NCBI GenBank assembly: GCA_963725665.1
Contig: CAVRZA010000011.1
Coordinates: 416,001 to 480,000, forward strand
Direction of reading: 5' to 3'
DNA length: 64,000 bases
From: an uncultured Actinomycetes bacterium
GTDB taxonomy: Bacteria; Actinomycetota; Thermoleophilia; UBA2241
Part shown: positions 33,217 through 43,521 of the stretch, piece by piece
Numbering within the stretch: position 1 is the stretch's first letter
How the letters are laid out: the number at the start of each line of letters is the position of its first letter
Notes under the pieces: generated by a model
The model's input: the letters and a program-made list of their open reading frames with translations, nothing else
What the model was told of the DNA's origin: nothing
Database searches by the model: none
Made by a program: the position numbers and the translations under genes

Positions 33217-35004
33217 TCAGCCCTGGCGATCCCCGTTCGACGGCTGCACCGTGACCGTGATGGCCGCGACGCCCTCTTCGAGGCGGTCGACGGGCTCATC
33301 GGGCGGCGGCGGCTCCTCTTGCGGAGGAGCCGCCGCCGCCTCATGAGCGCGCAGCGCCCCGGCCAGCATGAACGCCGCGGCGAGCAGGGCCATCGACGCC
33401 ACTGCCACGGGGACCGGAACGGTCCCGTTCTCGAGCAGGACGAAGAGGTACCACCACGACGAGAGACCGAGGTGGAGCTGTGCCGCGTACACGATGAGCA
33501 CCGCGGCGAACGCGGCGAAGCCGAGGCAGACGGGCAAGAGCGAGCGCTGCCACGCGCCTGGCCGGGCCAGCGGCCACAGGACGGCTGCCGGAAGGAACAG
33601 GATGAGCGAGAAGGGGTTCACGAGGAACGTGACCAGACCGGCGGCGAGGAGTACCAGATGGGCGACCAACACGACGTCCTCGCGTGGGACGGCTGCGCGC
33701 CGCAGGTAGCGGCGGTCCGCCACGAGGGCGTAGCGGTAGGCGATCGCGGCGAGGATGAGAAGGACGACTACGGGCAGGAGGCGCGGGTGCTGGGCGGCCA
33801 TCGATTCTGGCGAGATGGCCGTCGCGTGCCCGCCCGGTAGAAGGCCGAGGAAGTTCGCCGCATAAGCGATGACGAGGAGCGCAAGCCAAGGTGCGTAGCG
33901 GAAGGCGAAGTGCGTCCAGGCCGGTCCCAGTGACGCCCTGCGCCGGCGCGCTTGCGCGAACAAGTCGATCGTCGTGGCCGCGAGCGGAAGCGCCAAGGCG
34001 AGCAGCGTGAGCACGACCAGCCTTCCCGACAGGGTGCGGTAGCGGGAGAAGAAGACCGTGGTGCCGCTCCGCGAGAGGGGCGAGGTCGAGGCGTCGATGC
34101 TGGCGAGCAGCGCTTGGCTGCCTCGCCCGACCCGGGCCAGCGTCTCCGCCGAGAGGGTCGAGACGATGTCGAGTTGCGCCGGCGGCCGGCGGCCGGCGCG
34201 AGTGATCGAGATCGCCGGCGCGCCGGCCTCGACGAACGGTGCCTGGCTGCCGGATCCCACGGGGGCCGCCAGGCGCAGCACTTGCACGAGCGCGTGGGGC
34301 AGGGGCGCCGCGAGACCGCTGGCGCTGCTCTGTGACGACGAGGTGAGGATCCATGTCCACGGCGGCGCCACGCGCGGCGAGGCGCTCCATCCGTCGAGCG
34401 AGACTTTGGTCAGATCGGCGCGACCGACGCGGCGCAGCGCCAGGGCTCCGATGATGGGGAGGCCGGTGTGACGGGCGACGAACGACTTGGCCCCGAGGTT
34501 GCCGTAGGCGTCGCCGTCGGTCCAGAGGAAGAGCAGCTCGTGGGCGTGCGTGGTCAGCGTAAAGACACGGGCCAGCTCGAGCACCGTGGCCACGCCGGAG
34601 GCGTTGTCGTCGGCTCCCTGGCTGTCCAGCGGCGGTGAGTCGCGGTTGGCCAGCACGACGATGTCCCCGCGTGTCTTGCCCGGTGAGGTCGCCCAGACGT
34701 TCTGCAGCGCCACGCTGCGTCCGTCGATGACCCCGGTGAAGGTGTTGATGTGCGGTTGCAGGCCGAGCTGCTTCAAGTGCTCGACGAGCCAGATGGCGGA
34801 GCGCGCGTCGGCGTCGGAGCCGGGCGTGCGGCCAGGAAACTGCTGCGCCAGCGTCTGCGCGTCGACGAGGGCGCGCTCGCCGTCGAACGAGGTGGGCTGA
34901 TCGGAGAGACTGGGCACGACGGGCGAGTGCAGAAAGAGGAGCGTGAGCAGTGCGACGACCGCCGGCACGATCCAAGCGCTCCTGTAGATCCTCAGGTTCG
35001 GCAC
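33217..35004 (-). CDS. M28-family peptidase-like membrane protein
   Basis: GADDNASGVA.VLELAR, LWTDGD; multiple C-terminal TM helices. Metal ligands appear partly degenerate. Confidence 0.75.
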   Translation of the reverse strand: MPNLRIYRSAWIVPAVVALLTLLFLHSPVVPSLSDQPTSFDGERALVDAQTLAQQFPGRTPGSDADARSAIWLVEHLKQLGLQPHINTFTGVIDGRSVALQNVWATSPGKTRGDIVVLANRDSPPLDSQGADDNASGVATVLELARVFTLTTHAHELLFLWTDGDAYGNLGAKSFVARHTGLPIIGALALRRVGRADLTKVSLDGWSASPRVAPPWTWILTSSSQSSASGLAAPLPHALVQVLRLAAPVGSGSQAPFVEAGAPAISITRAGRRPPAQLDIVSTLSAETLARVGRGSQALLASIDASTSPLSRSGTTVFFSRYRTLSGRLVVLTLLALALPLAATTIDLFAQARRRRASLGPAWTHFAFRYAPWLALLVIAYAANFLGLLPGGHATAISPESMAAQHPRLLPVVVLLILAAIAYRYALVADRRYLRRAAVPREDVVLVAHLVLLAAGLVTFLVNPFSLILFLPAAVLWPLARPGAWQRSLLPVCLGFAAFAAVLIVYAAQLHLGLSSWWYLFVLLENGTVPVPVAVASMALLAAAFMLAGALRAHEAAAAPPQEEPPPPDEPVDRLEEGVAAITVTVQPSNGDRQG

Positions 35005-35212
35005 GGCCCCCCTTCCTACTCAAACCCCACAGCGAGAGTCCCGAGCCTTGGCGCCGGAAGCAGGCGCGTTGCATCCTACCAGAAGCGGCCGCATCGACGG
35101 CACCTCGGGGCGCCGGGCGATCGTCCTGAGCGCCGCACGAGGTCGCCCCGGCACTGTTGCCCGGGTGCGCGTGCGTTTCGCGACGAAGGCCATCGTCTAT
35201 CATGGGATGGAG

Positions 35213-35926: not shown

Positions 35927-37456
35927 TTGGGGACCGTTGTGAGATCGAGCCTCCGCTCCCGTCTCGCCCTGACGCATGCCGCGGTCGCGCTGGTGGCCAT
36001 CGTCGTCGTCGGCGTCACCGTCAACTTGGCCGTCTCACGCCGCTTCGACCAGTACGTGGCCGCGCAACAACGGTTGCGCGACCAAGCCGTGATCGAGCAG
36101 CTCGCGCAGACGTACGTGCCGGGGACGGGCTGGGACTCCCAGGCGATCTTCTCGGCCCAGCACCTGGCTGTGATGAACGACTTGGGCCTGCGCGTGTACG
36201 ACCCGTCGGGCAAGCTCCTGTTCGCCGTCGGCAGCGGCAACGGCATGATGGGCCAAGGGAGCCAGGGCGGCATGATGGGCCAGGGCGGCATGATGGGCCA
36301 GGGATCGAGTGCCCAGAGCGGGGCCGTAAGCGTCTACCGTCATCCGGTGGTGGTCAACGGGGCGACCGTGGCGCAGACCGAGGTCGTCCATCCTACCGGT
36401 GGCGTCGTGCCCCAGGATGCTGCCTACCGTCGCTCGCTCAACCTGTATCTCATCATCGCCGCTCTGATCGCGGGAGGCCTGGCGCTGGCGGTCAGCGTCC
36501 TCGTTTCGCGGCGAATCGCGCGCCCGGTGCTCGCTCTGACCGGCGCGGCTGCACAGCTCGAACGCGGCGACCTCGGCGTGCGCGTCCCGGCCGAGGGCGG
36601 CGACGAGGTCGCCGGTCTGGCTCACGCGTTCAACAGCATGGCGCAGGCGCTCTCGCGGCAGGAGGAGTGGCGGCGCACCATGACCGCCGACCTGGCTCAC
36701 GAGTTGCGCACGCCGCTGGCCACCATCCAGGCGAGGATCGAGGCGCTCGAGGACGGCGTGCTGCCGGCCACGCCCGAGAACCTCCGCGTGATCGGCGAGG
36801 AGGTCGAGCGGCTCGCGCGCCTGCTGGGCGAGCTCCGCAGCCTCAACGAAGTCGAGGCGGAGGGGTTCGTGCTGCGACGCGAGCCGCTCGACCTCGCCGA
36901 GGTAGCGCGCGACGCTGCGACGTCGGCCGACCCGGGCTTCGCGCGCAAGGGCGTGGAGCTGCGGGTCGCGGCGCAAGCGGTCGCGGTCGACGCCGACCGC
37001 GACCGCCTGCGCCAGGTGGTCGCCAACCTGCTCGACAACGCCCTGAAGTTCACGCCTGCGGGAGGCCACGTCGACCTGAGCGTCACGCCGGAGACTCCGC
37101 CGTCGCAGGGCCGGTCGGCGGTCGCGGGGGGCACGGTCGAACGGCGTGGCGACGGCGTCGCTGGGGGATACGCACTCCTCAGAGTGAGCGACGACGGTCC
37201 GGGCGTCGCGGCCGGCGATCTTCCGTACGTGTTCGAGCGCTTCTATCGTGCCGACGCGGCCAAGGGCACGCGCGGCGCCGGTCTCGGCCTCGCCATAGTC
37301 AAGCGGCTCGTCGACGCTCACGGCGGCACGGTCGAGGCCGCCGCCGGCGCCGCCGGCGGGGCCCTGTTCATCGTTCGCCTGCCGCTGCTCGCCGCGGCGG
37401 CGCCCGAACGGCTTGCCTCAGCGGTGGTGGGCTCCGAGGAGAGGACGGCAGGATGA
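35927..37456 (+). CDS. HAMP sensor histidine kinase with Met-rich GMMGQG repeats
   Basis: AHELRTPL, NLLDNALKF, FERFYRAD, GLGLAIV. Confidence 0.92.
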   Translation: MGTVVRSSLRSRLALTHAAVALVAIVVVGVTVNLAVSRRFDQYVAAQQRLRDQAVIEQLAQTYVPGTGWDSQAIFSAQHLAVMNDLGLRVYDPSGKLLFAVGSGNGMMGQGSQGGMMGQGGMMGQGSSAQSGAVSVYRHPVVVNGATVAQTEVVHPTGGVVPQDAAYRRSLNLYLIIAALIAGGLALAVSVLVSRRIARPVLALTGAAAQLERGDLGVRVPAEGGDEVAGLAHAFNSMAQALSRQEEWRRTMTADLAHELRTPLATIQARIEALEDGVLPATPENLRVIGEEVERLARLLGELRSLNEVEAEGFVLRREPLDLAEVARDAATSADPGFARKGVELRVAAQAVAVDADRDRLRQVVANLLDNALKFTPAGGHVDLSVTPETPPSQGRSAVAGGTVERRGDGVAGGYALLRVSDDGPGVAAGDLPYVFERFYRADAAKGTRGAGLGLAIVKRLVDAHGGTVEAAAGAAGGALFIVRLPLLAAAAPERLASAVVGSEERTAG

Positions 37457-38418
37457 ACGACGCTCCGACGTGGACCGGCGTGCTGCACGCCGGCATCCAC
37501 GGCTTCTTGCGCTCCCCGGTCGTTCGTCCCGACACGGGCGAGCTTGCGGCCGCGAAGGCCACCCATGCCGTCTACGGCATCCCCTTCGACAGCACCACCC
37601 TCTACCGGACGGGGTCGATGCACGGGCCCAAGGCGGTGCGCGACGCCTCGGCGCAGTTCGTCTCCTACCACTACGACTACGACCTCGACCTGGCGGAGCA
37701 CATCCGGCTGGTCGATTGCGGCGACGCCGCCGCCGTGCCGGGCAACGCGGCGCGCACTCTCGCCCTCGCGCAGGTTGACCTCGAACAGATCCACGCGGCG
37801 GGCGCGATGCCGATCGTCCTCGGCGGCGAGCACACGGTGACCATCGCGGCCACGCGCGCCTTGGCGGCTCAGCGCCGCGGCGCGCTGGGTCTGGTCGTCT
37901 TCGACACGCACCTCGACACGGCCACCGACATCGGCGGCGAGGAGCTCACCTACTGCGCTCCCGTGTCGCGGACGCTCGACCTCGACGCCTTCGCGCCGGG
38001 CAACGCCACCATAGTCGGCGTGCACGGGCCGGCCAACCCGCGCGAGGAGCGCCGCTGGGCCGATGAGCACGGCGTGCGCGTGTTCTCCATCGCCGAGATC
38101 GAACGACGCGGCATCGTGGATGTCACGCGGGAGGCCATGGCGATCGCCTGGAAGGGCACGGGCGGCGTCTACGTCTCGATCGACATCGACTGCCTCGACG
38201 CCGCCTACAACCCCGGCGGTGCTCCGGAGCCGGGCGGGCTCACCAGCCGCGAGCTGTTCGCCGCCTTGCGCGAGGTGGCCGCCGCCGGCTACAGCGCCTT
38301 CGACGTCGTCGAGGTGGCGCCCCAGTACGACCCCGCCGGGATCACGGCGACCACGGCCTGCCGAGTGATCCTCGACCTGCTCGCCGCGGCGGTCGCAGGC
38401 CGCGCCGGCTCACTCTGA
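37453..38418 (+). CDS. Agmatinase/ureohydrolase family protein
   Basis: GIPFD, GGEH, DTHLD, SIDIDCLD, PEPGGL, DVVEVAP; ATGA overlap with the kinase gene. Confidence 0.9.
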   Translation: MNDAPTWTGVLHAGIHGFLRSPVVRPDTGELAAAKATHAVYGIPFDSTTLYRTGSMHGPKAVRDASAQFVSYHYDYDLDLAEHIRLVDCGDAAAVPGNAARTLALAQVDLEQIHAAGAMPIVLGGEHTVTIAATRALAAQRRGALGLVVFDTHLDTATDIGGEELTYCAPVSRTLDLDAFAPGNATIVGVHGPANPREERRWADEHGVRVFSIAEIERRGIVDVTREAMAIAWKGTGGVYVSIDIDCLDAAYNPGGAPEPGGLTSRELFAALREVAAAGYSAFDVVEVAPQYDPAGITATTACRVILDLLAAAVAGRAGSL

Positions 38419-38448
38419 TCGGCGGGTACAGCCGAGCACCTGGATGTG

Positions 38449-38466
38449 GTAGCATCAATATGCTAC
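38449..38466 (+). promoter_or_regulatory. Palindromic TA operator overlapping a -10 (TAGCAT)
   Basis: GTAGCAT-caat-ATGCTAC inverted repeat upstream of the antitoxin. Confidence 0.65.
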
Positions 38467-38489
38467 AGCCCTGCTTCACGGGAGGAACC

Positions 38490-38717
38490 ATGACTCGCGA
38501 ACTGAAGCTCCGCCAGGCCGGAGGCTCGATCAGCGCGACGCTACCCAAGGACATGGCCGAGCGGCTCCACCTCTCAGCCGGCGACACGGTGCTGGCTGTG
38601 GAGACCGAGCGCGGCATCCTGCTGACGCCCTACGACCCTGAGGTCGAGGAGGCGCTGGCCATCGCCAGCAGGGTCGCGGGCGCATACCGCAACGCCCTGC
38701 GCGAGCTTGCCAAGTAG
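38490..38717 (+). CDS. AbrB/MazE-family antitoxin
   Basis: LRQAGGSISATLPK...L.AGD.V...GILLTPYDP; GGAGG RBS. Confidence 0.88.
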   Translation: MTRELKLRQAGGSISATLPKDMAERLHLSAGDTVLAVETERGILLTPYDPEVEEALAIASRVAGAYRNALRELAK

Positions 38718-38721
38718 CCGG

Positions 38722-39616
38722 TGTCGGAGCAGACGATTCAATCTTGACCCCTTTGTGACGATTCAAAGTTGACCCCCCTACGTCGCCGGCGTCGTGACGA
38801 TGCCGGCCTTCTTCCTGTCCTTCAGGCGGTAGCTCTCGCCCTTGATGGTGATCGTGGTCGAGTGATGCAGCAGGCGATCGAGGATCGCGGTGGCGATCAC
38901 CGCGTCGCCGGAGAACACCTCGGCCCATTCGCCGTAGCTCTTGTTGGAGGTGAGGACGATGGAGCCGCGCTCGTAGCGGCGGCAGACGACCTCGAAGAAG
39001 AGCGCCGCCTGCTCGGCGTCCAGGGGCAAGAAGCCGACCTCGTCGACGATCAGCAGGCGCGGGTAGGTGAAGGCGGCCAGACGGCGCGTGAAGGTGCCCG
39101 CGCTGCGTGCCTCGGCCAGCGAGGCGACAGCTTGGCCGCCGTCGTGAACTTGACGGCGTAGCGGCGCTTGGCGGCCTCCAGGCCCAGGGCGATGGCGATG
39201 TGGCTCTTGCCCACGCCCGGCGGGCCCGAGGAGCACCACGTTCTGGGCGCGCTCGACGAAGGCGCAGCTCGCGAGCTCGGTCACCTGCTTGCGGTTGATC
39301 GAGGGCTGGAAGGCGAAGTCGAAGCCCTCGAGGGTCTTCTTGGCGGGGAAGCCCGCCAGACGCACGATGGTCTCTGCAGCGCGCCGGTCGGCGGCCCCGG
39401 CGCAGGCTGCCAGCAGCGCCTCGGTGAAGTCGGCGAACGACCACTCCTTGGCGGCCGCCTCCTCGGCGAAGGCGGGCAGGAGCGCCGGCAGGTCGGGCAG
39501 CTTCAGGCGCTCGGCGAGGTGGCAGATCCTCTCCTCGGCGAGGCTCATCGGCAGGCCTCCTCGTAGACCGAGAGCGGCCGCTTGACGACGAGCGGCGCCT
39601 GCTCGAAGAGCGCGGG
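38722..39616 (-). mobile_element. Truncated IS21-family element (right end, istB, last ~24 codons of istA)
   Basis: TG-starting end with 20-bp subterminal repeats GACGATTCAA..TTGACCCC (38732, 38757); istB; istA tail VKRPLSVYEEA with ATGA overlap; no left end. Confidence 0.85.
38778..39548 (-). pseudogene. istB: IS21 helper ATPase IstB with two compensating frameshifts around Walker A
   Basis: FDFAFQP, LLIVDEVGF, TSNK, AILDRLLHH, GESYR. PGVGKSHIA is read in a shifted frame between about 39224 and 39128. Confidence 0.85.
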
Positions 39617-40021
39617 AGGGAGCCACGCTGGGTCGACCGCCTCGTCGTCGAGGCGGTGCAGTTCGACCTGATCCGCGAACACGGCGGCATGCCCGGGTTG
39701 GGCGACGAAAACGGCCTCGAGGCGGCTCTGGCACGGCCCCGGCAACGACGCGCCTACGAGCCTGAGGCCGATCTCGCTGAGCTGACCGCCGTGTACGGTC
39801 ACGGGTTGGCGGCAAGCCACCCGTTCCACGACGGAAACAAACGCATCGCGTTCGTGACCATGGCGGTCTTCCTTGGGTTGAACGGCTTCGAGGTCGCGGC
39901 GCCGGAGGCCGAGGTGGTCACGGTGATGCTGGCCCTGGCCGCCGGGGAGCTCGATGAGGATGGGCTTGCTGTCTGGCTCAGGTCGCGGATGATTGACGCG
40001 GCTGGTGGGGAGTCCGGCTAA
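39617..40021 (+). pseudogene. doc: Doc/Fic toxin lacking its original start codon (IS-interrupted)
   Basis: REPRWVDRLVVEAVQFDLIREHGG...HPFHDGNKR; separated from the antitoxin by the IS remnant. Confidence 0.85.
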
Positions 40022-40101
40022 CGACGGGGCTTTGAGCAGCGAGCGCTCACACCCGGTCTTGCTCAGGGCTTCTGCGAGTCTGCTCGAGCGCCTTGTCAGG
40101 C
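40016..40101 (-). mobile_element. Integron attC site 3 (somewhat degenerate)
   Basis: R'' GCCTGAC ... R' GTTAGCC; inner GAGCAG/CTGCTC pairing; 86 bp. Confidence 0.7.
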
Positions 40102-40590
40102 GCGTCCAGAGCAGACTCTTGCGGCGACCAGACCATGCTGCAGTAGGCGAAGGGATCGCCGGATGGCGGCACCTTCGTGCCTGTGCCGGTGATCACGAAG
40201 CCCAGACTCCGATGAGCACCCCAGGGCGCGCACATTGGATTGACGCACGTTCAGGCAAATGGAGTCGCCAGGAAACGCCTGGTGGAACTGAGCGATGCCG
40301 AGTCGAATCGCCGCACTGCCGATGCCGTGCCCGAAATCGGAAGCGCTGGCGAGGAACACGCCGAGCACAGCTCTACCTTCCCCCGAGAGACGTTCAATCC
40401 AGACGGTCCCGACCTCGCGACCATCCTCGATCACGAGGAACCAGAAGAGACCAGAGCTAGGATCGTGGTGATCGGCAAGGTCGGCGATGGGACGCGTCCG
40501 GGACATGAACTCACTGCTGCCGATATCCGAGGCCCAGCGATCAATCGTCGCGAGGTCCTCAGGTGAAACCGGCTGAAGCGAGATGGACAT
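40047..40590 (-). CDS. GNAT acetyltransferase gene cassette (+1 frameshift near 40215)
   Basis: FGHGIGS..I and NV..SN.RA..C(Y)RSLGF once one base is removed; C-terminus PDKALEQT reads into the attC. Confidence 0.8.
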
Positions 40591-40600
40591 CCTTGGAAAC

Positions 40601-40663
40601 CGCCAACGCCTGGCGCATGACCAGCGCCGCAAAGCGGCGTCTGGGTTCTTGCGCTTGTTGGGC
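40601..40663 (-). mobile_element. Integron attC site 2
   Basis: GCCCAAC aa GCGCAAGAACCCAG a CGCCGC ttt GCGGCG CTGGTCATGCGC caggc GTTGGCG; 63 bp. Confidence 0.85.
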
Positions 40664-40684
40664 GGCTGCGCCGCGGCTTGCACG

Positions 40685-41041
40685 CTATCCCGCGACGTGT
40701 TGCACGCCGTGCCGCGACGCGAGCTCGAAGAAGCGCTGCGCCTCCGCGGCGTCGCCGATCGCCTCGTATGCGCCGCCGAGGCTCACGAGCAGCGAACCCA
40801 TGAACTCAGTCGAGCGGCAGTCGAGACGGGCGCGCTCGAGCGCGATGATGTGCCAGCGCAGAGCCTCGTCGGGATCCGGCTCGAGATGAGCGACGTAGTG
40901 CGCGGCGATCGCCGCGTCGTAGTCATCGGCACGGGCATCCCATGCTGCCAAGAACAGGGCGTGGGCATCGCCGATCCGACGCTCAAGCTCGGCCTGGGTG
41001 CCCTGCATGCAGAGCTGTGCGGTGCGGCTATCGAGATTCAC
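40685..41041 (-). CDS. Hypothetical helical (TPR-like) cassette protein
   Basis: Single ORF between two attC sites; LVSLGGAYEAIGD..EA..FF..A pattern. Confidence 0.7.
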   Translation of the reverse strand: MNLDSRTAQLCMQGTQAELERRIGDAHALFLAAWDARADDYDAAIAAHYVAHLEPDPDEALRWHIIALERARLDCRSTEFMGSLLVSLGGAYEAIGDAAEAQRFFELASRHGVQHVAG

Positions 41042-41078
41042 GCGCCAACGCCCCCCTCAGTCCGGCGACTACCATTCC

Positions 41079-41165
41079 GCCCAACGCTGGGCGCGTAACC
41101 TGCGAGCGCCGCAGCCCCGCTTTGCCGCGACGCTCTGGCGAGTCAGGTTGACGCGCTTGTTGGGC
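41079..41165 (-). mobile_element. Integron attC site 1
   Basis: R'' GCCCAAC, L'' GCGCGT(C)AACCTG pairing with L' CAGGTTACGCGC leaving one extrahelical base, R' GTTGGGC; 87 bp. Confidence 0.9.
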
Positions 41166-41195
41166 GCCGTTCGGTTCACGCGACCCACCTACGAC

Positions 41196-41720
41196 TCACC
41201 TCCCTGACGTCAGCATCCAAGGCGCGAAGAACTGGACAACGAACGCCACGATGAGCAGCCGAGACGCGGCTACGGCCGAGGCGAGGCGGCGGTCACTGCC
41301 AGCCGCCGCCCGCACCAAGGCGACGGCCGCGAGAGGATAGACGAGCGCAGCCGCGACCAGGACCGGGACGGCGAACTTGGGCATCAGCTCGGTGAGGCCG
41401 GTGCGGAACACCTGGCGCAGGATGACGAGTGCCCCGGCGACGAGCAGCGCGAGCCCGACGCCGCGCAGCAGGCGCGACACCCGCCGCATCGCGAACAGGC
41501 CGCACACGAGCAAAGCCACTGGTAGTGCGAAGAGCACCGCGATGCCAATGGCGTACTCCCACAGCGCCGTCTCCGACCCGGCAGCCCCGCCGGTGGGCTC
41601 TGCGGCCGCGACCGCTGCGGCGACGAGAGACGCCGCGGCCAACCCCGCAAGCGACGCCGCTACACGTCGCGGCCGGGAGCCGCCCTGACGAATCGCCCCG
41701 CTGCTCATCCTGCCGTCCAA
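41196..41720 (-). CDS. Hypothetical multi-pass membrane cassette protein
   Basis: AAGGAG RBS before TTG 41720; about five hydrophobic segments; bounded by the attI-like site and attC1. Confidence 0.6.
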   Translation of the reverse strand: MDGRMSSGAIRQGGSRPRRVAASLAGLAAASLVAAAVAAAEPTGGAAGSETALWEYAIGIAVLFALPVALLVCGLFAMRRVSRLLRGVGLALLVAGALVILRQVFRTGLTELMPKFAVPVLVAAALVYPLAAVALVRAAAGSDRRLASAVAASRLLIVAFVVQFFAPWMLTSGR

Positions 41721-41757
41721 CCGCGCTCCTTCGCCTAGCGGATGCGCTCGCCAGTGC

Positions 41758-41862
41758 GCCCAACAAGGATTAGACAGTCTGCAGATGATGTTCGGCACAG
41801 ACTGTCCTTTTCTGCAGAAGACCCTAGCACCAGCCTAGACGGGTGTCATGGGCAGTCTGTGA
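41758..41862 (-). mobile_element. attI-like site at the head of the array
   Basis: TGTCTAA-tcctt-GTTGGGC core with no attC-type partner arm; upstream repeats CAGACTG (x3) and TCTGCAGA (x2). Confidence 0.5.
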
Positions 41863-41864
41863 GA

Positions 41865-41904
41865 GACGGGCGGGGAAGGCCCTCCGGCCTTCCCCGCCCG
41901 TCTT
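41865..41904 (-). terminator. Hairpin terminator downstream of trpB2
   Basis: GACGGGCGGGGAAGGC-ctccg-GCCTTCCCCGCCCGTC, 16-bp stem. Confidence 0.75.
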
Positions 41905-41996
41905 CGTCCGGCGGCGAGCTGAACGAGCCGCCGCCCTGGGTCGTCTCGACTGCGCAACGGTCAGAGCGGCCGCTGCGCGCGCGGTCTGTCCGGCCC

Positions 41997-43355
41997 TTAC
42001 ACCTGCGGCACGTGCTCGAGCGCCTCCTTGATCGACGCGCCGGGGTGCTCGTAGTCCTCGAGACTGCCGTCGAGGTAGGACTCGTAGGCGCCGAGGTCGA
42101 GGAGGCCGTGCCCGGTCAGGTTGAAGAGGATGGTCTTGGCCTCGCCCTTGGCCGCCGCCTCCTTGGCCTCATCGACGGCCACCAGGATGGCGTGCGCCGA
42201 TTCCGGCGCCGGCACGATGCTCTCGGACTGTACGAAGAGCCGCGCCGCCTCGAAGACCCTGCTCTGAGGCACGGCGACCGCCTCCATCAGGCCAAGATGG
42301 TAGGCGTGGCTGATGAGCGGCGCCATGCCGTGGTAGCGCAGGCCGCCGGCGTGGATGCCGGCCGGCACGAAGTCGTGCCCCAACGTGTACATCTTGAGCA
42401 GCGGCGTCATCTGCGCCGTGTCGCCGAAGTCGTAGTCGAAGACGCCCTTCGTGAGCGACGGACAGGCCGTCGGCTCGACGCCAACGAAGCGCGTCTTGGT
42501 CTTGCCTGCGAGCTTCTCGCGCATGAAGGGAAAGGCGATGCCGGCGAAGCTCGAGCCGCCGCCGACGCAGCCGATGACCACGTCGGGGTAGGCGTCGGCG
42601 AGAGCGACCTGCTCGAGGGCCTCCTCGCCGATCACGGTCTGGTGCAGCAGCACGTGGTTCAACACGCTGCCGAGCGAGTACTTCGACCCCGGGTGCGTCA
42701 CGACGTCCTCGAGCGCCTCGGAGATGGCGATGCCGAGACTGCCGGCCGAGTCGGGGTGCTCCTCGAGGACCTTGCGACCGAACTCGGTGTGCTCGGTCGG
42801 GCTCGGGTAGATCTCGGCGCCGTAGAGCTGCATCATCACGCGGCGGTAGGGCTTCTGGGCGTAGCTCACCTTGACCATGTACACGGTGAGATCGATGCCG
42901 AAGATGTCGCAGGCCATCGCCAGGGCGCTGCCCCACTGGCCGGCGCCGGTCTCGGTGGCGATGCGCCCGACGCCGTCCTCCCTGTTGTAGTAGGCCTGCG
43001 CCACCGCGGTGTTCGACTTGTGCGAGCCCGACGGGCTCACGCCCTCGTACTTGTAGAAGATGCGCACGTTGTCGGGCAGGCCGAGCTTGCGCTCGAGGTG
43101 GGCGGCGCGGATCAGCGGCGTCGGTCTCCAGATGCCGTAGATGTCACGGACCTCGTCGGGGATGTCGATGAAGCGCTCCATCGACGCTTCCTGCATGATG
43201 AGGCCCATGGGGAATATCGGCGCCAGGTCGTCGGGGCCCGCCGGCTGCTTGGTCCCGGGGTGCAGCGGAGGCGCGGGCGCCTCGGGAAAGTCGGGCGCGA
43301 TGTTGTACCAGCGCCGGGGGATCCTCTCTTCGTCCAACGTGTACTTCTTCGTCAT
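41997..43355 (-). CDS. trpB2: Stand-alone tryptophan synthase beta chain, type 2
   Basis: [51 protein letters not shown]; GGAGG RBS. Confidence 0.94.
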
Positions 43356-43521
43356 GACGCACCTCCTCTCGGATCGGTCACTCTCGTCTGGTCTGGTCGT
43401 CTCTCGGTCGGGGCGCCGCAACCGCGGCATCGCGCTGTTGGCGGGCGAGGCATTGGGCTTGAGGTCCGGGACTGATAAGCGACGTCACGCGTCGCGTGAG
43501 GGGTGGTGAGGTATGGGCGCG

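Follow-up and report, generated by a model that had tools for sequence, protein, structure and literature searches.

What is a row of integron-type recombination sites doing in an actinobacterial chromosome in which no integron integrase is found? The question is raised by a short interval between trpB2 and an arginase-family ureohydrolase gene in an uncultured bacterium (assembly GCA_963725665.1). We analysed bases 416001–480000 of a 671-kb contig (CAVRZA010000011.1, here C11), a stretch of 64 kb that we call the window; positions refer to its first base unless a contig or locus is named. A first-pass annotation, made from the sequence alone, had noted three palindromes in this interval and read them as attC sites of gene cassettes. 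The locus is a cluster of attC sites lacking an integron integrase (CALIN) and, more exactly, an attI-headed array without intI. It is very probably the remnant of a chromosomal integron native to the host's family, of the 'inverted integrase' layout, from which intI has been lost and an attI-like head with three cassettes is left. The host genome (G000; 3.73 Mb in 12 contigs, 68–69% G+C, estimated 97.5% complete and 5% contaminated) is that of an uncultured actinobacterium from a family of Thermoleophilia. Its actinobacterial character had been predicted and is borne out by the TrpB2 protein, closest to Thermoleophilia sequences (77% and 73%), the best of which comes from a genome of the host's own family.

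The palindromes are all present, each within 1 nt of the coordinates first assigned, on one strand within 1.15 kb. We term them S1 (41078–41166, 89 nt), S2 (40600–40664, a short form of 65 nt) and S3 (40015–40102, 88 nt), the last of the array; all three are minus-strand sites. Read on the plus strand, they start with RYYYAAC-type boxes (GCCCAAC in S1, CGCCAAC in S2 and GGCTAAC in S3) and end with GTTGGGC (S1 and S2) or GTCAGGC (S3), giving AAC...GTT-type outer triplets in each, with GTC replacing GTT in S3. The GGCTAAC box of S3, its R′ box, includes the stop codon of the adjoining doc gene. Within these ends lie inner boxes with extrahelical bases, as the first-pass annotation had described for all three sites. 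The inner helix is 12 bp long; on the plus strand its 3′ arm has a single unpaired base (two to three in S2), and an asymmetric spacer has 5 nt on one side and 2 nt on the other. The position of the extra unpaired base is what tells the bottom strand of an attC from its top strand, so the plus strand is the bottom strand here and the minus strand, which carries the open reading frames (ORFs), the top. Folded as single-stranded DNA, S1 and S2 adopt the attC shape, with outer boxes closed, a one-sided spacer of 3–5 nt and an inner helix whose 3′ arm has unpaired bases. Both fold better than shuffled sequences, with z scores between −2.3 and −4.5 (S1, −2.3 on the plus and −3.0 on the minus strand; S2, −4.5 and −3.7). 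The predicted attC fold thus stood for S1 and S2 and did not for S3, to which we return below.

Covariance models place these sites in a defined attC type. A first model, R1, was built from S1–S3 and two similar sites on contig C1, and was followed by R2 and R3; R3 holds only 86 sites of relatives, taken from arrays that adjoin bona fide IntI genes in 10 relatives, and none from the host genome itself. R1 found further sites on contigs C2, C1 and C4 of the host. Run over 12 fetched intI loci of 20 kb each, it gave 109 matches at E ≤ 0.5, 79 of these being matches in relatives at E ≤ 1e-5, with site arrays in all ten same-family loci. At every one of these ten, the array lies 3′ of intI and the attC top strand is co-oriented with intI. 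R3 was then scored at every position of the window on both strands. Only S1 (91 bits, E 6e-24), S2 (29.4 bits, E 5e-6), S3 (62.8 bits, E 1e-15, its R helix including three non-standard pairs) and S1 read on its reverse strand (26.8 bits) exceeded 18 bits, the best unrelated match reaching 17.8. A covariance-model search, the kind of check that had been proposed, returns all three sites with a model built from the lineage.

The 86 aligned sites vary in the manner of a conserved hairpin. Paired cells make up 90.5% of the total, against 77.9% in shuffles and 28–40% when partners are slid; double-change cells number 226, against 78.7 ± 10.4, and compensatory change occurs at 13 of the 20 pairs. 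The L helix is 94.7% paired, with compensatory change in 8 of its 12 pairs, and the AAC/GTT triplet pairs are near invariant (80, 83 and 85 of 86 sites). A covariation score of 0.361 compares with 0.144 for shuffles and was reached by none of 500 of them. These pair counts were made on an alignment fitted to the model and so lean towards structure; the slid controls and the position beside IntI are independent of that fit. The 89-nt consensus is conserved even within its loop, and attC lengths in the host genome run from 65 to 107 nt. These observations support the identification of the three palindromes as attC sites of the family's own type, the same as in arrays beside bona fide IntI genes, and with it the attC and gene-cassette architecture first proposed from sequence.

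Ordinary intergenic hairpins, such as terminators or repeats of the repetitive extragenic palindromic kind, could in principle carry AAC and GTT ends by chance. Each stem does stand just past a stop codon, as terminators do. Rfam gave no match over the whole window, a null result that is uninformative because Rfam, to our knowledge, has no attC family. A hand-made motif-plus-stem scan found 6 matches in the genome and 3 once the genome was reversed, and it missed S2 and S3, too poor a contrast with chance to serve as evidence. No T-run follows the stems of S1–S3, however, and the 89-nt type forms arrays only 3′ of IntI genes, at ten of ten family loci. The helices are maintained through compensatory change with constant AAC/GTT ends, the array is headed by a site homologous to the attI of relatives, and the genome's sites (about a dozen) cluster at four loci with no spread through intergenic space. 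We consider chance hairpins an explanation with practically nothing left to it.

If these are attC sites, where is the integrase? In the host genome no protein exceeded the 265-bit cut-off of TIGR02249, the best scores (85.9 bits) belonging to two XerD/XerC-like genes on contig C3. Fourteen tyrosine-recombinase-like matches occur in the genome and none of them on the window's contig, in agreement with the earlier statement that the window encodes no tyrosine recombinase. Translated searches (tblastn) used the IntI of five relatives at E values up to 10; the hits inspected, those of the IntI from relative locus L101, lay near none of the arrays. The genome-wide search for IntI, suggested at the outset, thus finds none in an assembly estimated at 97.5% completeness.

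Among relatives the gene is common. Of 401 genomes sampled from the class, 53 match TIGR02249 above 265 bits, and within the host's family 44 of 79 sampled genomes have a match at E ≤ 1e-40 (controls, 0 of 14). The IntI frames of five relatives carry a KYP...W.WQWVFP patch, and some relatives have two IntI (G208 and G335). Of 80 other family genomes, 72 contain the R3 attC type (E ≤ 1e-7, scoring no more than 54 candidates in each), and relatives that have IntI hold as many as 17 or more sites in 10 kb. Among the matches listed, the type also appears in 15 IntI-negative family genomes, which suggests that integrase-less arrays recur in the family. The premise of an integron-poor lineage accordingly does not hold for this family. 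A second family of the class (loci L107 and L108) has an IntI match in 14 of 61 genomes, and our attC model scores weakly beside those genes (19–29 bits); its attC type is probably different.

The place of the integron in the chromosome varies between genera. Across relative loci L100–L111, genes upstream of intI map to at least six places of the host genome (none reported for L102). A chromosomal position common to the family's integrons was considered and rejected: for nine of ten loci queried, none mapped beside the host's own arrays, and only L104 and L110 share a place.

The sequence at the head of the array links the locus to these integrons. Immediately upstream of the first cassette, on the minus strand, lies a 114-nt attI-like site (41758–41871). 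It contains CAGACTG-type motifs in three places, one in inverted orientation, and ends in the R box GTTGGGC (41764–41758). By blastn this segment matches DNA that lies directly after the intI stop codon, or overlaps it, in relative loci L097, L101 and L104, and it aligns with six relatives up to a common ...CAGACTGTCTAATCCTTGTT end. Its outer ~45 nt correspond to the 3′ end, the last codons, of the intI frame in three relatives; in two others the site stands 60–130 nt past the intI stop. The reading frame of intI itself runs into attI in three relatives. Judged by its position, the segment may function as attI, with a predicted crossover between 41764 and 41763. On its outer side, similarity to the relatives' integrons ends at a G+C-rich hairpin (41868–41900; an inverted self-match) that lies between trpB2 and the attI-like site, so that a trpB2 terminator occupies the place where intI would be expected. 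Retention of the attI-like head makes the array more than a bare attC cluster.

Downstream of the head, the minus strand divides into three cassettes, whose limits we infer from the R boxes, taking the crossover at AA|C of each plus-strand box. Cassette 1 (41085–41763, 679 bp) contains a 170-amino-acid predicted membrane protein (ORF 41196–41708) and S1; cassette 2 (40607–41084, 478 bp) a 118-amino-acid TPR-like protein (ORF 40685–41041) and S2; and cassette 3 (40022–40606, 585 bp) a 164-amino-acid GNAT acetyltransferase (ORF 40096–40590) and S3. Each site directly follows its one short ORF, as the first reading had it, with a gap of 29 nt after the membrane protein gene and 20 nt after the TPR-like gene and an overlap of 7 nt with the GNAT gene. 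In Pfam, the GNAT ORF matches Acetyltransf_3 above cut-off (26.7 bits), the TPR-like ORF matches TPR_12 and TPR_7 below their cut-offs, and the membrane protein has a weak match to DUF998 (17.4 bits, below cut-off). G+C content at third codon positions (GC3) is 0.84 for the membrane protein ORF and 0.68 for the GNAT ORF, and spans 0.68–0.84 for the cassette genes against 0.93–0.94 for the flanking genes (trpB2, 0.94).

Two of these genes recur as cassettes elsewhere. Ten of the 80 other family genomes have GNAT homologues, and at 8 of the 10 loci an R3 match (E ≤ 0.001) lies within 1.5 kb; in G122 and G286 the homologue shares a contig with intI and sits ~10 kb downstream of it. A second GNAT copy is the first cassette of the host's own array on contig C4. 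Homologues of the TPR-like protein were found at five loci in 4 of the 80 genomes, one of the five with an attC match beside it. The same gene next to an attC in other arrays is thus seen at 8 of 10 loci for GNAT and at 1 of 5 for the TPR-like gene.

The far end of the array is occupied by a predicted toxin–antitoxin (TA) pair that runs convergently with the cassettes. The doc toxin gene (39656–40021, plus strand; Fic/DOC, 121 amino acids, Pfam Fic 49 bits) abuts S3, and the mazE/AbrB-type antitoxin gene (38490–38717, plus strand; 75 amino acids, MazE_antitoxin 35.5 bits) is preceded by a palindrome at 38449–38466. Both genes score above their Pfam cut-offs, and both have close counterparts in the relatives' integrons. 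Doc is 72% identical at the amino-acid level to the Doc at the far end of the L101 array; MazE is 89% and 83% identical to copies in integron loci L101 and L106, the latter also with a similar upstream palindrome. The pair stands right after intI in L106, near intI in L098 and L112, and inverted at the array end in L101, where it abuts the last attC exactly as in the window. No attC match was found past mazE (38419–38489), so MazE–Doc ends the array but is not a canonical cassette. It is likely to have had a stabilising effect on the array in the past.

The two genes are adjacent in relatives and are separated here by a ~0.9-kb remnant of an IS21-family insertion sequence (IS) (38722–39621, minus strand). 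What is left is an intact istB (38778–39548, minus strand; IstB_IS21 223 bits over 236 of 238 profile positions) and a right end bearing two direct sub-terminal repeats. The remnant has no istA and no left end, so a complete IS21 is not present, and no second copy was found in the genome. It separates doc from the mazE promoter. Locus L101 is contiguous across its position, and one contig of public run X2 joins 38731 to 39613, a weak observation that possibly concerns another organism. The interval marked in the first-pass annotation does contain the array, but that annotation had left unnamed the attI-like site, the MazE/Doc pair and the IS21 remnant (left third).

How did such an array come to stand beside trpB2? 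Both flanks named at first are confirmed, trpB2 (41997–43430, minus strand) on one side, followed by its G+C-rich hairpin, and on the other the arginase-family ureohydrolase gene (37450–38418, plus strand), which has no attC. We compared the trpB2 loci of eight relatives, where the content of 37450–41990 is absent in all eight. In six, a homologue of the window gene at 33220–35019 starts 137–193 nt past trpB2; in the other two a histidine kinase gene lies between them, in one case together with a response regulator. Gene content at the locus thus differs from that of every relative compared; the invariance that would have told against the first reading was not seen. Gene order on either side of the array is shared with the eight family relatives, at 47–81% amino-acid identity. 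From this synteny, the array is best described as a lineage-specific insertion within a syntenic chromosome region. No intI was found at the trpB2 locus of relatives, intI and trpB2 being on different contigs or far apart, and an attC search at the trpB2 loci of 22 more distant relatives gave nothing above 20.3 bits.

The ureohydrolase gene is also missing from the trpB2 locus in all eight relatives compared. Three of them have a paralogue, 34–37% identical, at another place. In the window, the ureohydrolase gene overlaps at its start with the end of a histidine kinase gene.

An insertion of this kind in an otherwise syntenic region argues against a chimeric join, the possibility that the segment reached the contig by misassembly or contamination from another phylum. 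The genome is admittedly a metagenome bin with 5% estimated contamination. The window nevertheless lies inside a 671-kb contig whose genes on both sides match the family's gene order, the attC and attI sites are of the types found in that family, and the G+C content of the cassettes (0.63–0.72) brackets that of the window (0.69). We found no sign of the join that the first-pass annotation had allowed for and rate its likelihood as negligible. Ten public sequencing runs contained at most 0.12 of the sampled words; contigs assembled from four of them were short, none bridging the array or its junctions, and public reads therefore neither support nor question the assembly.

The window array is one of several in the genome. 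A census with R2 found about a dozen sites, clustered at four loci. Besides the window array on C11 (three sites, with membrane protein, TPR-like and GNAT genes), there are two sites at C1:72943–73673 (L009 9944–10674), with DUF1801 and RibD_C-like cassette genes; two at C2:227246–228062 (227246–227313 and 227974–228062), where the scanned ORFs have no Pfam match; and three weaker ones (26.5–33 bits) at C4:341442–342927, with GNAT, methyltransferase and YoeB/ParE-like toxin genes. Single sites occur at C1:545235–545322 and at C11:669369–669434 (L124 9370–9435), the latter after a Gp49-like/HTH (HigBA-like) pair and 1.5 kb from the contig end. The boxes of S1 and of the C1 site 72943–73031 are nearly identical, and the C4 GNAT is 51% identical to that of the window. 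The surroundings of C1:72943–73673 are visibly lower in G+C, and TetR and MFS genes lie upstream of the C2 array.

Two of the other arrays have heads of their own. The C2 array (226913–228062; L121 6914–8063) begins with a site that is 81% identical over 104 nt to the window's attI-like site. In the C4 array (338244–342927; L122 5245–9928) a 1.46-kb insertion with an IS110-family transposase gene interrupts the attI-like copy. The search for such a head at C1:72943–73673 was negative. All three copies diverge at the same outer point (window 41860–41880, C2 ~226905 and C4 ~338236), a few bases outside the outermost CACAGACTG motif and, in relatives, within the 3′ end of intI. That the genome has three attI-headed arrays lacking intI, at unrelated loci and with one outer limit, raises the idea that an attI with a few cassettes is a unit that has been copied or moved in this lineage, seeding platforms free of integrase that would be serviced in trans. 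We regard this as rather unlikely.

Could the array still be in service by another route? An integrase encoded on an unassembled or unbinned piece, on a plasmid or on mobile DNA might act in trans on several arrays. The state of the sites would suit it: the attI-like site is complete to its outermost motif, S1 at 91 bits is near consensus, and S1 shares near-identical boxes with the C1 site. Arrays number at least four in the genome, three of them attI-headed, the bin is unclosed (12 contigs, 97.5% complete), and G208 and G335 illustrate that a second IntI occurs among relatives. Against this, neither IntI nor a fragment of it was found in 3.73 Mb, and both the IS-disrupted TA pair and the IS110-split attI-like copy on C4 suggest decay. 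The arrays are also short, two or three sites compared with the 17 or more per 10 kb reached in IntI-bearing relatives, and the 15 IntI-negative family genomes hold a few sites of this type. Service in trans is, on balance, quite unlikely. The first-pass annotation had offered 'served in trans or orphaned'; orphaned fits better, and a missing contig leaves room for the other.

We therefore return to the remnant of a family-native integron and to what it would imply. Read along the minus strand, the interval consists of an attI-like site (41871–41758), three one-gene cassettes each ending in attC, and the oppositely oriented MazE–Doc pair. In relatives, intI lies directly upstream of such an attI and co-oriented with the cassettes, and in the window the trpB2 terminator occupies its position. 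By established integron biology, IntI would have inserted the cassettes at attI. It would have recombined the folded bottom strand of attC, the plus strand here and marked by the extrahelical base and the asymmetric spacer, with crossover expected at AA|C of the R box. Once IntI was gone, the array would be frozen and its genes still transcribable; excision, reordering or addition of cassettes would need an integrase in trans. The data show the sites and their type, the homology of the head to attI, the lack of IntI in the assembly and its occurrence in relatives, and an insertion specific to the lineage. Past activity of IntI at this locus, the loss of intI by whatever route and the array's present inactivity are what we infer from this arrangement.

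Several observations weigh against this interpretation. The minimum-energy fold of S3 is not the attC shape, a forced attC-type closed fold costing +0.7 kcal/mol, and its z scores of −1.3 and −0.7 are non-significant. S2 reaches only 29.4 bits in the covariance search. One extrahelical base is modelled in the L helix, and classical attC sites have two or three. The models descend from sites of the host genome, which makes the selection of relatives' sites less than fully independent. At the distal end, the TA pair has no attC of its own and the array end is non-canonical. The single outer edge shared by the genome's three attI-like copies is not explained by simple loss of intI. The assembly, lastly, is a 12-contig metagenome bin with 5% contamination, and intI could lie on an unassembled or unbinned piece.

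How does the locus compare with known integrons? CALIN is reportedly a category of IntegronFinder that goes back to Cury et al. 2016. PMC13674405 and 10.1101/2024.05.13.594038 define it as a cluster of attC sites lacking an integron integrase. The window array corresponds in that two or more attC sites share one orientation, a single short ORF goes with each, and no IntI was found close by, on the contig or in the assembly. It differs in keeping an attI-like head, which brings it closer to an integron that lacks intI only. Integrons with an inverted integrase are known from Treponema denticola and other non-proteobacterial lineages. The relatives' arrays, 3′ of and co-oriented with intI at ten of ten loci, conform to that layout, and the order in the window fits it, except that intI is absent. 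For the overlap of attI with the 3′ end of intI, seen in three relatives, we know of no description in inverted-integrase integrons.

The sedentary chromosomal integrons of Vibrio offer a second comparison, with their homogeneous attC sites of the Vibrio cholerae repeat (VCR) type and their toxin–antitoxin cassettes. Likenesses are the lineage-specific, homogeneous attC sites, the small cargo mostly of unknown function and the TA modules within arrays or at their ends. Unlike the Vibrio integrons, the host carries tiny arrays spread over at least four loci, is a high-GC Gram-positive bacterium and has a TA pair without attC. Sedentary chromosomal integrons are mentioned in 10.1101/2024.07.02.601686. 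A third parallel is with delta-attI-type cassettes (PMC12901181), in which partial attI sequence lies inside resistance cassettes of class 1-type mobile integrons. Those too place attI-derived sequence away from intI; the difference is that full-length attI-like sites here head small chromosomal arrays.

Set against these systems, the locus falls short of a complete integron for want of intI, and it resembles in its working the cassette array of a sedentary chromosomal integron with inverted integrase. The element itself is of a known kind, and it is the phylum that makes the locus notable. Among complete RefSeq genomes, Actinobacteria were without complete integrons (PMC9024848). Our literature search found no description of integrons native to Thermoleophilia; supplements of surveys (for example, PMC9024848 and PMC13323075) may list such matches. 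As an object in its own right the locus carries moderate weight, being small and partly decayed, with fuller examples in the same family.

Why whole phyla should be without integrons is an open question, and this phylum has been described as nearly lacking them. One family of Thermoleophilia, by the counts given above (IntI in 44 of 79 genomes and attC in 72 of 80), has an attC type of its own, an attI of its own and widespread IntI genes, and the present genome would represent loss of the integrase with several arrays left behind. If blocks of attI and cassettes do move, new cassette platforms could be seeded without an integrase in a family where native integrons are common, contrary to the picture of Actinomycetota as lacking integrons. 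The family may offer a natural system in which to follow an integron working in a high-GC Gram-positive background, and the fate of its arrays after intI is lost.

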